A stretch of DNA of 26,819 nucleotides from a virus. Lineage: Duplodnaviria; Caudoviricetes. The translations under genes were made by a program, and so were the position numbers. Positions 14,732-21,220 of the stretch are shown here, piece after piece. The DNA lies in the IMG/VR virus record IMGVR_UViG_3300010368_000087, positions 1 to 26,819 of that record, one strand, 5' to 3'. The notes under the pieces are model-generated. The model was not told the DNA's origin, searched no databases, and saw only the letters and a program-made list of their open reading frames with translations. The stretch's first letter is position 1. Every line of letters begins with the position of its first letter.

Positions 14732-15289
14732 ATGCTTATAAAAACAGATAATCTGGGAATTCCACGTTTCACAAATCTTGATCTTATTGATATGATCTAT
14801 TCAGGTCATGTTGACAAATGTCATGTGGTGTTATGCGATCCTAGTGATGATGTTGAAAAGTTTAATGCAGCGATGCGTGAACAATACCTCCCCGAACTCA
14901 CAACTTATATCCCACTAGATGTAGATCAAAAGACTTTTGATGGTGCTTTGCAAAGTGAATGGTTTATGCCTGATGAATACAAACATCTTGATGTAGATGA
15001 TTTTTGTATGCGTAAACTGATGAAGATAAAAAATGTAACTCATCCAAGTGCTGTAATTTATTCGACAGAAAGTGAACGAGCATACGAAGAACTTGCAGCG
15101 TTTGACGAGCGTGGTATGTACAACTTGCTACGCTATATGATCTATCTTGTAGACTTTATGCGTGAGAACAACATCGTATGGGGGGTAGGACGTGGCAGCA
15201 GCGTCAGTTCCTACGTTTTATTTCTCATCGGAGTTCATAGAATCGATAGTTTAAAATATAACCTTGATTGGAGAGAATTTTTAAGATAG
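14732..15289 (+). CDS. dnaE: DNA polymerase III alpha (DnaE)-like N-terminal fragment of a split C-family polymerase
   Basis: ERAYEEL...YLVDFMRENNIVWGVGRGSSVSSYVLFLIGVHRIDSLKYNLDWREFLR matches the DnaE VGPGRGSAAGSLVAY-LGIT-DP...LFERFL block. Ends just before the catalytic PDIDxD motif. Confidence 0.8.
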   Translation: MLIKTDNLGIPRFTNLDLIDMIYSGHVDKCHVVLCDPSDDVEKFNAAMREQYLPELTTYIPLDVDQKTFDGALQSEWFMPDEYKHLDVDDFCMRKLMKIKNVTHPSAVIYSTESERAYEELAAFDERGMYNLLRYMIYLVDFMRENNIVWGVGRGSSVSSYVLFLIGVHRIDSLKYNLDWREFLR

Positions 15290-16012
15290 ACCTTTCTTTT
15301 TGTTTTCCCAATATAATTTTCTTTTTTCACTCATTTTTCTTTTTGCTTCATCTGTAAACACTCTTCCTTTACCCTTCTCGCTTATTTTTTTCCTAGTTTC
15401 GATAGATACTTCTTGACCTAGTCTATGTTTATTTCCTTTTAAAGATTGGCTAATTTTTTCTTTTGTTTCATCAGACATTTTTCTTCCTTTTTGTTTTTCA
15501 CTCATTATTTTGCGAGTTTCAGCAGAGTGACATTTTCCAAAAAAAGGATTCTCCTCACCGACTTTGCCGAACATTGGATTATTTGTGCCTTTTAATTTAC
15601 TTGAAATTTTTTGTCGTGTTTCTAAAGATGCCGGCTGTCTGTTTTTTCCAGCAATTTTTAGTTTTTCTTTTGTTTCGTCACTTACAATCGTTCCGGTAGA
15701 ATCATAACAAAATTTAGTTGATGTTTGCTTGGCATTATTATAAAAATTTTCATTTAAATTTACATTAAACTTATTGTGTAGTTTTATTTCGAACTGTAAA
15801 GCACTGTGTCTGTTATCAAAGATTCTAATAACTTTATATCGGTAATTTTGTGGATTGTCTTTTTGATCTTTTATAAAGTCTTTATTTCTAGACGAAGAAA
15901 AATAACTGTTGCCTAAATCAAAAACAGGAAAATTATTTGAAGATCTAACGCCGTAATAGTGTCTTCTTTCAATAGTGTTTGTAATCCTATAAACATAATG
16001 ATACTTTTTCAT
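15281..16012 (-). CDS. Free-standing GIY-YIG homing endonuclease (Seg-like) with NUMOD3 repeats
   Basis: YHYVYRITN...HYYGVRSS...YFSSS...FE..LH...FYN catalytic domain. Repeated S-x-ET(K/R)-x-K(I/M)S and NP(M/F)FGK motifs. AAGAGG SD; convergent 9-nt overlap with dnaE. Confidence 0.88.
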   Translation of the reverse strand: MKKYHYVYRITNTIERRHYYGVRSSNNFPVFDLGNSYFSSSRNKDFIKDQKDNPQNYRYKVIRIFDNRHSALQFEIKLHNKFNVNLNENFYNNAKQTSTKFCYDSTGTIVSDETKEKLKIAGKNRQPASLETRQKISSKLKGTNNPMFGKVGEENPFFGKCHSAETRKIMSEKQKGRKMSDETKEKISQSLKGNKHRLGQEVSIETRKKISEKGKGRVFTDEAKRKMSEKRKLYWENKKKGLS

Positions 16013-19320: not shown

Positions 19321-20231
19321 AGAAAATATGGGTAGACAAATATCGACCAAACACTCTTGATGGGTATGTGTTTAGAGATCAGTCTCAAAAGGAACAAATT
19401 GAAGGATGGATCAAACAGGGATCGATTCCTCATCTGTTACTAAGTGGATCTGCTGGAATTGGCAAAACCACTATTGCAAAAATCTTAATCAATCAGCTTG
19501 ATGTACAAGACATTGATTTGATGATTGCAAATGGTAGTAAGGAAGCACGAAAAATTGAATGGGTTGATAAACTCATTAGCTTCTGCCAAACAATGCCTTT
19601 TGGTGATTTTAAAATTGTGCTTATTGATGAAGCAGATTATATGAATATCAATTCAGTGCAGCCAGCATTGCGCAATCTTATGGAAGATTACAGCACTGAT
19701 GTTAGGTTTATCCTTACTTGCAACTACCCTAACAAAATTATGCCTGCAATACACAGTAGATGTCAGCACATGCATTTTGAAAAAATTGATCAGACAGAGT
19801 ATACTGCTAGAGTTGCAGAAATACTAATTACTGAAAATGTAGAGTTTGACCTTGATGTACTGGATACGTATGTTAAGGCATATTACCCTGATTTGCGCAA
19901 ATGTATCAATACTGTTGAAATGAATAGTCAAACAGGATCGTTGGTTGCTCCTACTACTGGCTCAAGCTCTAGTGATTATAAAATCCAGATGGTTGATTTA
20001 TTTAAATCAGGTAAAATATTGGAAGCTAGAAAGCTAATTTGTTCTCAGGCCACAACAGAAGAAATGGAAGACATTTATCGCTGGCTTTATGATAATCTAG
20101 AAGTGTTTGGCGATGAAGAGCAGCAGGATAGTGCAGTGCTAATCATTAAGCAAGGACTTGTGGACCATGCACTGGTGGTTGATCCTGAAATAAATCTTGC
20201 TGCTACACTAATTAGATTGGCAAGACTGTAA
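19317..20231 (+). CDS. Sliding-clamp loader AAA+ subunit (RFC small subunit / T4 gp44-like)
   Basis: WVDKYRP, Walker A GSAGIGKTT, Walker B LIDEAD, RFILTCNY and SRC motifs. Confidence 0.93.
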   Translation: MKKIWVDKYRPNTLDGYVFRDQSQKEQIEGWIKQGSIPHLLLSGSAGIGKTTIAKILINQLDVQDIDLMIANGSKEARKIEWVDKLISFCQTMPFGDFKIVLIDEADYMNINSVQPALRNLMEDYSTDVRFILTCNYPNKIMPAIHSRCQHMHFEKIDQTEYTARVAEILITENVEFDLDVLDTYVKAYYPDLRKCINTVEMNSQTGSLVAPTTGSSSSDYKIQMVDLFKSGKILEARKLICSQATTEEMEDIYRWLYDNLEVFGDEEQQDSAVLIIKQGLVDHALVVDPEINLAATLIRLARL

Positions 20232-20254
20232 TGACTTACGTTGTAAACGATAGC
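20231..20254 (+). pseudogene. Orphaned first copy of the ferredoxin 5' end (MTYVVNDS)
   Basis: TAATG-coupled to the clamp loader; matches MTYIVNDA at 20407. Frame continues as NSRTRDT and stops at 20278. Confidence 0.75.
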
Positions 20255-20426
20255 AATAGCAGAACAAGAGATACTTAAAGTATCTACAAGATATAAACCT
20301 AAAAAAAGATTTGGAGGTTATACTGAATGTATAAAAGAATATGTAGACGTACACAAGTATGTTCCGAACAGGGTCGGAAACCCTATAGAGGAGGCTTTGG
20401 CAGACTATGACCTATATCGTAAATGA
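20247..20426 (+). pseudogene. Start-less C-terminal remnant of a putative GIY-YIG-superfamily homing endonuclease
   Basis: Open frame ...[56 protein letters not shown]. The E-Q-x-IL...Y-x-PK-x-x-FGGYTEC pattern resembles phage GIY-YIG-like nuclease C-termini (recognised from memory). Confidence 0.55.
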
Positions 20427-20754
20427 TGCTTGTATTAAATGCAAACATATGGATTGTGTTTCAGTCTGCCCTTAGCCAGTCGACTGTTTCTACGAAGGTG
20501 AAAACATGTTGGTAATTAATCCAACTGAATGCATTGATTGTGGGGTATGTGAACCTGAGTGCCCTGCAGATGCAATTACAGCTGACACTGTGGATGGTGC
20601 CGATAAATGGGTAGAGTTTAATCAAAAGTATTCAGATATCTGGCCCAATATTGCTCAAATGAGGTCAGAGGACGTCCCAACTGATGCAGCTGATTGGCAT
20701 GGTGTACCAGGAAAAAATAAATATTTCAGTGAGGAGCCTGGAAAAGGTGATTAG
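20407..20754 (+). CDS. fdxA: 7Fe ([3Fe-4S][4Fe-4S]) ferredoxin, FdxA type, interrupted by in-frame TAG at 20473-20475
   Basis: [52 protein letters not shown]... with C-x2-C-x4-C-x3-CP and C-x2-C-x2-C-x3-CP motifs; GAGGAGG SD at 20388. The ORF track captures only 20506..20754. Confidence 0.85.
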
Positions 20755-21220
20755 AGCAATATTAGCACATGATGCACATTATGGAATTGGTAAGAATGGT
20801 ACACTGCCTTGGCCCAAGAACAGTAAAGATTTGCAATGGTTTAAAGAATGTACCGATGGGTGTGCAGTGGTCATGGGACGAAAAACCTGGGAAAGCTTGC
20901 CAGTCAAACCACTGCCAAACAGAAAGAACATAGTAATAAGTTCTAGTGAAGTTCAAGACGCCACATATACATATACGCATGATGATGTGCTTAATGGAGT
21001 TCTAACTGAAATTAGTTTTGAATTCCCTGTTTGGATTATCGGCGGCGCACAGTTAGTCGAAAGTTCTTTAGACATTATAGATGAATTATGGCTTAACAAT
21101 GTGGATGGGGACTATGACTGCGATACGTTCTTACCAGTAAAGAAAATAAACAAAATGTTTAAAATTGAACATTCTGAAATTAAAAGTTTCGGAATAGTTT
21201 CGAAATGGAGTAAAAAATGA
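20747..21220 (+). CDS. folA: Dihydrofolate reductase
   Basis: [46 protein letters not shown] and DCDTF motifs. GTG 20747 is the likely start. Confidence 0.93.

Follow-up and report, generated by a model that had tools for sequence, protein, structure and literature searches.

A 7Fe ferredoxin gene in the 26,819-nt stretch of phage DNA analyzed here (the window) contains a real, conserved and mobile recoding cassette. Judged from its sequence, the element is probably the remnant of a cassette in a jumbo-phage ferredoxin gene, inserted at the Cys-Pro-Val codons, which re-supplied codons 1–22 and left an amber-led gap over which ribosomes would hop to give the normal 113-residue protein. All ferredoxin and cassette features given below lie on the plus strand.

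The window frame beginning at ATG 20407 reads V-C-P-stop-P-V-D-C (CCT at 20470–20472, TAG at 20473–20475 and CCA at 20476–20478) and is otherwise an intact 7Fe ferredoxin, open until the TAG at 20752–20754. The 6-nt coding gap (20473–20478) was delimited from the sequence as the amber stop plus the presumed landing triplet CCA. Exactly these 6 nt are missing from the closest gapless relative (L001; 92% identical, 113 aa) and 45 other distinct alleles carry a gap, so the insertion noted in the preliminary description is real and its reading frame is as claimed there. Positions 20200–21000 showed no differences from a separate, though not independent, assembly of run X1 (the probable source run; depth 14.6). 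Contigs from a second study (X8 records 27 and 28, X11 record 2) span the gap without an indel, each with fewer than 31 letters on one side. An assembly error is an unlikely source of the window gap. Further contigs in the examined runs are without the 6 nt and, alongside the gap contigs, indicate that both allele types are present in these waters.

The 91 C-terminal codons plus stop (20479–20754) are host-derived, are identical to L001 at 253/273 nt and match Pfam Fer4 and DUF3470. If the gap is skipped, the product has the 17 residues between Cys-Pro and CxxCxxCxxxC and the DUF3470 tail of a 7Fe (FdI/FdxA-type) ferredoxin; the predicted protein would be an ordinary member of the group of 7Fe ferredoxin I (PDB 1axq and relatives), the gene differing only in how it is decoded. 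A plain relative, P0002, matches the solved 7Fe ferredoxin I at E 1e-34. The window itself, 26.8 kb long, comes from a large aquatic phage and carries clamp loader, DHFR and structural genes; its clamp loader has its best cultured matches (50% identical) in Pseudomonas jumbo phages. For the DHFR gene (20748–21220), GTG 20748, which overlaps the ferredoxin stop, is the probable start in place of the listed ATG 20684.

Ferredoxin alleles were collected by pattern scans of viral and metagenome contigs and by a protein search (best 80 of 597). The 196 parsable ferredoxin records, many of them the same contig fetched repeatedly, comprised 118 with an amber-led gap, 76 plain and two (L162 and L196) which look like plain indel errors and were set aside. 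After removal of four short records, the 114 gap records were reduced to 46 distinct alleles, the window included, and the plain records to 60, which are best hits to the query and not a random sample. The variable-gap scans of viral and metagenome contigs demanded TGT at codon 17, which left out alleles with TGC and makes that codon no evidence; the upstream cluster cysteines of the gap alleles were likewise imposed by the search patterns. Chance matches were discarded from the scans (4/12, 4/13 and 2/23, plus L219 and the non-ferredoxin rows of another scan). Bacterial and archaeal genomes, searched with the TGC-start pattern only, gave eight matches, none with an amber gap (five 1-nt additions, one 27-nt duplication and two unrelated sequences). 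Among cultured phages nothing matched the cassette at the DNA level, and the eight ferredoxin records obtained were distant (54% identity or less), which left no carrier in culture among them.

In all 46 alleles, from viral and metagenome contigs, the gap follows the same Cys-Pro and its first triplet is TAG (46/46). The gap is 6 nt long in 34, 5 nt (frame-breaking) in 10 and 28 nt in two. Take-off codon and gap read CCT TAG CCA (11 alleles), CCT TAG CTT (11), CCT TAG CTA (9) and, once each, CCT TAG CTG, CCT TAG CCG and CCG TAG CCG in the 6-nt class, and CCG TAG CG in all 10 of the 5-nt class; L157 and L201 make up the 28-nt class. A third record of that class, L218, ends inside the gap. The preliminary description had the hop depend on matched proline codons, which fails: the triplet directly before the resume codon is a proline codon in 15/46, a leucine codon (CTN) in 21/46 and GCG in 10/46.

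The sequence beyond the gap is kept as coding sequence. The C-terminal parts of the gap alleles are 40–79% identical to that of the window, all four downstream cluster cysteines are present in 46/46, and 41/46 downstream frames are complete (85–96 aa) without an internal stop, the other five ending with the contig. Pooled pairwise dN/dS among the gap alleles (n = 46; pairs not independent) was 0.165 over codons 2–21 and 0.056 over the ten codons after the gap, with synonymous sites of codons 2–19 near saturation (pS 0.61). The 10 alleles of the 5-nt class had pN 0 and pS 0.37 in the ten post-gap codons, despite these being out of frame with the start. The plain alleles gave lower dN/dS values (0.05 and 0.007), though they had been chosen as best hits. 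Recurrence at the same site and purifying selection on both halves of the gene, both envisaged in the preliminary description, were thus found. The gap gene is the sole copy in 4/5 long, incomplete records checked.

These values bear on the reading in which translation ends at the amber codon and restarts downstream, a 22-residue peptide and a C-terminal piece assembling around the Fe-S clusters. A methionine lies within 13 residues after the gap in 35/46 alleles, and genes split by endonucleases can yield two reassembling chains, as in the account of nrdA/MobE in the available text of bioRxiv 10.1101/2022.08.31.505936. Purifying selection is, however, strong on the ten codons that separate the gap from the usual methionine, which are thus likely translated, and 11/46 alleles have no methionine within 17 residues. 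A restart is very unlikely.

Sequence 5' of the gap carries the traces of a mobile element. A stub of the original ferredoxin start (M-T-Y-V-V-N-D; 20231–20253) is coupled to the clamp-loader stop and is identical over 23/23 nt to the start of L001. It is followed by a 58-codon C-terminal endonuclease remnant (20250–20426) that has no start, overlaps the new ferredoxin start and matches residues 209–257 of a 257-aa protein in L119. The cassette-supplied N-terminus (codons 1–22; 20407–20472), under the selection given above, ends with the presumed take-off codon CCT. Over this N-terminus and the gap, the window and L002 are identical at 69/72 nt, as against just 201/273 over the C-terminal part; compared with its plain sister L001, the window has 52/66 nt identical in the N-terminus and the 253/273 nt noted above in the C-terminal part. 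Relatives show the full arrangement, which is an original N-terminus ending in C-P-V/A-stop, an endonuclease-like gene (254–267 aa), new codons 1–22, the gap and the host C-terminal part. Longer stubs, up to C-P-V/A-stop, stand 5' of the endonuclease in L085, L119, L153, L166 and L181. By comparison of sequences, the window stub would have been left by cassette insertion and the cassette later partly deleted. The stub, the endonuclease remnant and the leader RNA (20364–20405) had all been overlooked in the preliminary description.

The L119 protein matched PHROG 681 (endonuclease, E 5.6e-36) and PHROG 559 (HNH endonuclease, E 4e-26); no Pfam family above the cut-off and no solved structure was found for the full-length endonuclease, and the window remnant alone matched no family in PHROG and Pfam searches. 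It is likely a homing endonuclease, so called on its context. Endonuclease similarity was detected 5' of 29/46 gap alleles (12 near full length) and 1/60 plain alleles. The leader and gap remain in the 17/46 alleles that have no detectable endonuclease trace, five of which have less than 410 nt of upstream DNA. Searches begun from the endonuclease gave 28 loci, of which 15 were close relatives (13 with the gap, L295 without it and L282 cut off); no ferredoxin gap was seen downstream in the 13 distant loci. A motif, ATAAATA, stands just 5' of the endonuclease start in L119 (650–671) and nine other intact genes, overlapping the stop of the truncated ferredoxin copy; we take it to resemble a T4-type late promoter.

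A tree of 97 C-terminal halves, built on few columns and not separating gain from loss, needs 11 label changes, at least six of them forced by well supported branches, and places gap and plain alleles as sisters. It shows from sequence that the cassette has spread patchily over ferredoxin lineages. The locus L212/L295, which the tree places as a sister to gap allele L082, has the leader and an endonuclease remnant and no gap, which was likely lost after the nuclease had decayed. In L166 the truncated upstream ferredoxin copy itself has a leader element 5' of it, about 890 nt before the ATG of the gap gene; this suggests that an endonuclease invaded a gene already bearing a cassette.

The leader begins in the window with a predicted H-type pseudoknot (20364–20384), in which 20364–20366 pair with 20375–20377 and 20370–20374 with 20380–20384. 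A strong Shine-Dalgarno sequence, GGAGG (20390–20394), lies 12 nt 5' of the ATG; the same motif is found 11–13 nt before the ATG in 44/46 gap alleles and 2/60 plain alleles. It is followed by a hexamer (20400–20405) complementary to codons 20–21 (20464–20469), the pairing in the window running from 20393 up to the gap. This complementarity is present in 46/46 gap alleles and 2/60 plain alleles, one of the latter being L212, which keeps the whole leader yet has no gap. The hexamer ends 0–2 nt before the ATG in all 46 (in L135 it adjoins the ATG according to the alignment). Its partner codons are GTC in 44/46 and TGC in 43/46 gap alleles, as against 3/60 and 8/60 plain alleles, and the leader duplex averages −15.5 kcal/mol in gap alleles and −5.5 kcal/mol in plain ones. 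A local hairpin between codons 20–21 and the resume codons was rejected as not specific, since plain alleles can also form it.

The leader alignment contained 32/46 alleles, three near-duplicates, the two 28-nt forms and nine alleles with a variant leader having been excluded. Over its 31 distinct rows a three-helix model had 96.5% of cells paired and 35 changed on both sides, which exceeds all 500 shuffles and all slid controls, although these controls flatter a structure derived from the same related sequences. Helix 1 of the pseudoknot was 100% paired, and helix 2 had 90% of its cells paired and both-side changes in 30; the pseudoknot is also kept in alleles without a detectable endonuclease trace. 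The long leader helix had 100% of cells paired and five changed on both sides, probably in two events, and appears as well in a single-sequence fold of the window. Part of the conservation may be shared descent, since the cassette may have one origin. The nine variant alleles (L126, L127, L134, L139, L142, L151, L174, L185 and L205) have another sequence before the Shine-Dalgarno with an apparent hairpin at the same distance, whose loop, by eye, could pair further upstream.

Together these results leave little room for a dead gene or an assembly error, that is, for a selfish cassette in a dispensable ferredoxin, and this reading is extremely improbable. It draws on the auxiliary nature of phage ferredoxin, on the decay of the endonuclease in the window and on the spare copy in one carrier, G005 (an uninterrupted ferredoxin, 58% identical to P0002, beside the gap gene). 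A dead gene would not be expected in 46 alleles with near-saturated synonymous sites and 41 complete frames without an internal stop; the low dN/dS of the cassette-supplied N-terminus, the compensatory RNA changes and the persistence of leader and gap beyond the endonuclease also stand against it. Recurrence, selection and the assembly match support the earlier view that a pseudogene and an assembly error are unlikely.

The two alleles with a 28-nt gap bear on how the gap is passed. Their stop is enclosed in a hairpin (z −4.5 for the 41-nt fold), GAG stands exactly 6 nt before a matched CCA, a second UAG lies in the resumed frame and a +1 change is needed, so that only a jump or an excision restores the frame. 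They have 49/50 leader nt and 66/66 N-terminal nt in common with the 5-nt allele L169, and one device serving both forms points to a hop. Since readthrough by itself rescues neither the 5-nt nor the 28-nt version, a hop fits best as a single mechanism and is the likely one. To this extent the stop-hop of the preliminary description is upheld; it is not a bare one, having an endonuclease cassette and a leader RNA.

The main rival is leader-stimulated amber readthrough in the 6-nt forms (C-P-x-P/L-V-D-C) combined with a −1 slip in the 5-nt forms (C-P-V-A-V-D-C), either of which would give a working ferredoxin two residues longer. A −1 shift after proline opens the correct frame of the 5-nt form with cognate re-pairing at CCC, both short classes yield the same +2 length, and the triplet after the stop varies in a codon-like manner (CCN or CTN) in the 6-nt forms. 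TAG is nevertheless never replaced by a sense codon (it stood in 9/9 matches in which the middle codon was left free), nor did the variable-gap scans yield a clean sense insertion. The spacing from Cys-Pro to the next cluster motif is fixed at 17 residues in 263/263 parsable homologues (of 270 examined, all close matches). Of the 114 tRNAs in the tRNA regions of carrier phages (four records, all incomplete), none had a CUA anticodon, the window itself being a 26.8-kb fragment, and TAG terminates 6/33 window genes, so that neither an amber-recoded nor a suppressor phage is indicated. Readthrough also fails for the 28-nt form, with its +1 requirement and second stop, and would need two mechanisms for one leader; it is judged rather unlikely. 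In three carriers (G001, G003 and G004; L263–L269), 27–49 tRNAs each were found in the regions covered, and every tRNA-Pro among them has the anticodon UGG.

Excision of the 5–28 nt from the mRNA, by a leader-guided micro-intron, a trans-acting ribozyme or a nuclease and ligase, would provide a single mechanism for all gap lengths with no landing match needed, and the leader pairs up to the 5' edge of the gap like an internal guide. Group I introns have a catalytic core, a U before the 5' splice site and a terminal G. A register with such a U and G is possible in 2/46 alleles, and in 22/46 no register ends in G. An Rfam scan of 12 loci gave no match at E up to 1, and the conserved leader is small (about 50 nt in L089). 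A length of about 50 nt is too small for a group I core. The window leader shows no pairing to post-gap sequence, and the invariant in-frame UAG is a signal for translation, as are the mini-Shine-Dalgarno and the matched codon in the 28-nt form. Excision is therefore quite unlikely. The sole RNA run examined (X23, 0.07 of words) gave a 200-nt contig identical to 20481–20680 (depth 2.8), which ends short of the gap and is silent on splicing.

For the hop the following course is proposed. A likely homing-endonuclease cassette would insert at the Cys-Pro-Val codons of a ferredoxin gene, re-supply codons 1–22 and leave the gap, which, by analogy with MobA, would shield the DNA from the nuclease of the cassette. 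Ribosomes would initiate at the strong Shine-Dalgarno sequence and pause when codon 22 holds peptidyl-tRNA-Pro and the A site holds UAG. Peptide release may be slow after a C-terminal proline; the available part of review PMC13602936 held no confirmation of this. The leader hexamer, freed by the passage of the ribosome, would then pair with codons 20–21 as they leave the decoding region and the mRNA would be pulled forward by 5–6 nt, the helix meanwhile preventing a trailing ribosome from initiating. The tRNA would re-pair loosely at any triplet preceding the Val codon, where decoding would resume, the landing place being set by the helix more than by codon match. As modeled, the helix ends 6 (or 5) nt before the landing triplet, the spacing of the gene 60 mini-Shine-Dalgarno, which would explain why only 15/46 landing triplets are proline codons.

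In the window the leader helix ends directly 5' to the take-off codon. In T4 gene 60, about 26 nt lie between the P site and the structure formed by exiting mRNA, and pairing of the exiting mRNA was proposed as the forward driver (bioRxiv 10.1101/2024.12.09.627546, available text). Given that distance, the geometry which we infer for the pairing step may be wrong and the helix may act otherwise, for example by keeping off trailing ribosomes or by slowing the lead ribosome.

The ferredoxin cassette would work like T4 gene 60/MobA without being a member of that family (bioRxiv 10.1101/2022.08.31.505936 and 10.1101/2024.12.09.627546, available text). Common to both are an endonuclease in a conserved gene, often decayed while the gap persists, a cassette-supplied N-terminal region and a gap that opens with UAG directly behind the take-off codon. 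The gene 60 layout, as described in the available text of bioRxiv 10.1101/2022.08.31.505936, recurs in the 28-nt form, which has a hairpin at take-off, a matched landing codon with GAG 6 nt before it and a change of frame. The host gene is that of a 7Fe ferredoxin rather than of the topoisomerase II large subunit, and the endonuclease, compared by features alone, differs from MobA in having two Cys/His repeats and a C-terminal nuclease-like part. The gap is 5–6 nt, compared with 50 nt for T4 and 20 nt for the clade with the shortest gap in the same text; in the homologues of gene 60 covered there the landing codon is always matched, whereas it is matched here in the window (CCT/CCA) and in 15/46 alleles overall and unmatched in 31/46. 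Only the two 28-nt alleles have a take-off stem-loop of the gene 60 type, enclosing the stop; in the window the 6-nt gap folds with the leader instead. A mini-Shine-Dalgarno located 5–7 nt 5' of the landing codon is confined to L157 and L201 (GAG 6 nt before CCA) and absent from the window. Unlike gene 60, the cassette has a proline take-off codon and a 5' leader that pairs with the two codons before it, and it re-supplies the whole N-terminus, so that the protein is not split. The gene 60/MobA system is further marked by a nascent-peptide stimulator, by one protein made from two frames and by a gap that keeps the endonuclease from cutting; in the ferredoxin cassette, codons 1–22 are under constraint from ferredoxin function.

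Other systems are less close. Synthetic stop hops in Escherichia coli likewise use nine nt (codon, stop, matched codon) for one residue, as would the window allele; they are low-level and lack stimulators, whereas the ferredoxin site is natural, conserved and flanked by selected RNA structure (PMC5009743, available part). The same part of that 2016 review knew of no natural in-frame stop hop. The byps of Magnusiomyces mitochondria and the terminase bypass of Streptomyces phage Hau3 are also short inserts skipped after a slow A-site codon (PMC5009743, PMC10732093 and bioRxiv 10.1101/2022.08.31.505936); that codon is an unused or rare sense codon and not a stop, byps are 27–55 nt long, and the available portions of these sources describe no endonuclease cassette or leader helix. 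A ferredoxin bypass was not described anywhere in the literature searched, which leaves out most subscription papers and the supplements of the preprints (with further cassette tables).

Tentatively, the elements may constitute a second family of phage bypass cassettes that evolved independently. It would include the first stop-hops found in nature and, at 5–6 nt, the shortest bypass to be programmed; a 5' leader, by pairing with the two codons decoded last, would work as a ruler and set the landing site with no need of a matched codon, one leader serving gaps of 5, 6 and 28 nt. If the bypass is true, this is a natural instance of ribosome hopping, of which there are few, and the shortest one. 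Very few systems are known to use programmed bypassing; this family adds to them 46 natural variants of a cassette some 120 nt long, with gaps of three lengths and with compensatory changes, and the cassette is small enough for a reporter or a cell-free system. By analogy with MobA, the findings suggest that inserts skipped in translation have evolved more than once for the self-protection of endonucleases, and also that gene callers miss such genes as pseudogenes.

No sigma-70 promoter was found within 20100–20900. Elsewhere in the window, a NUMOD3-repeat protein is encoded on the opposite strand at 15281–16012, directly after a 185-aa fragment of DNA polymerase III alpha (14732–15289), and is possibly a second endonuclease insertion.
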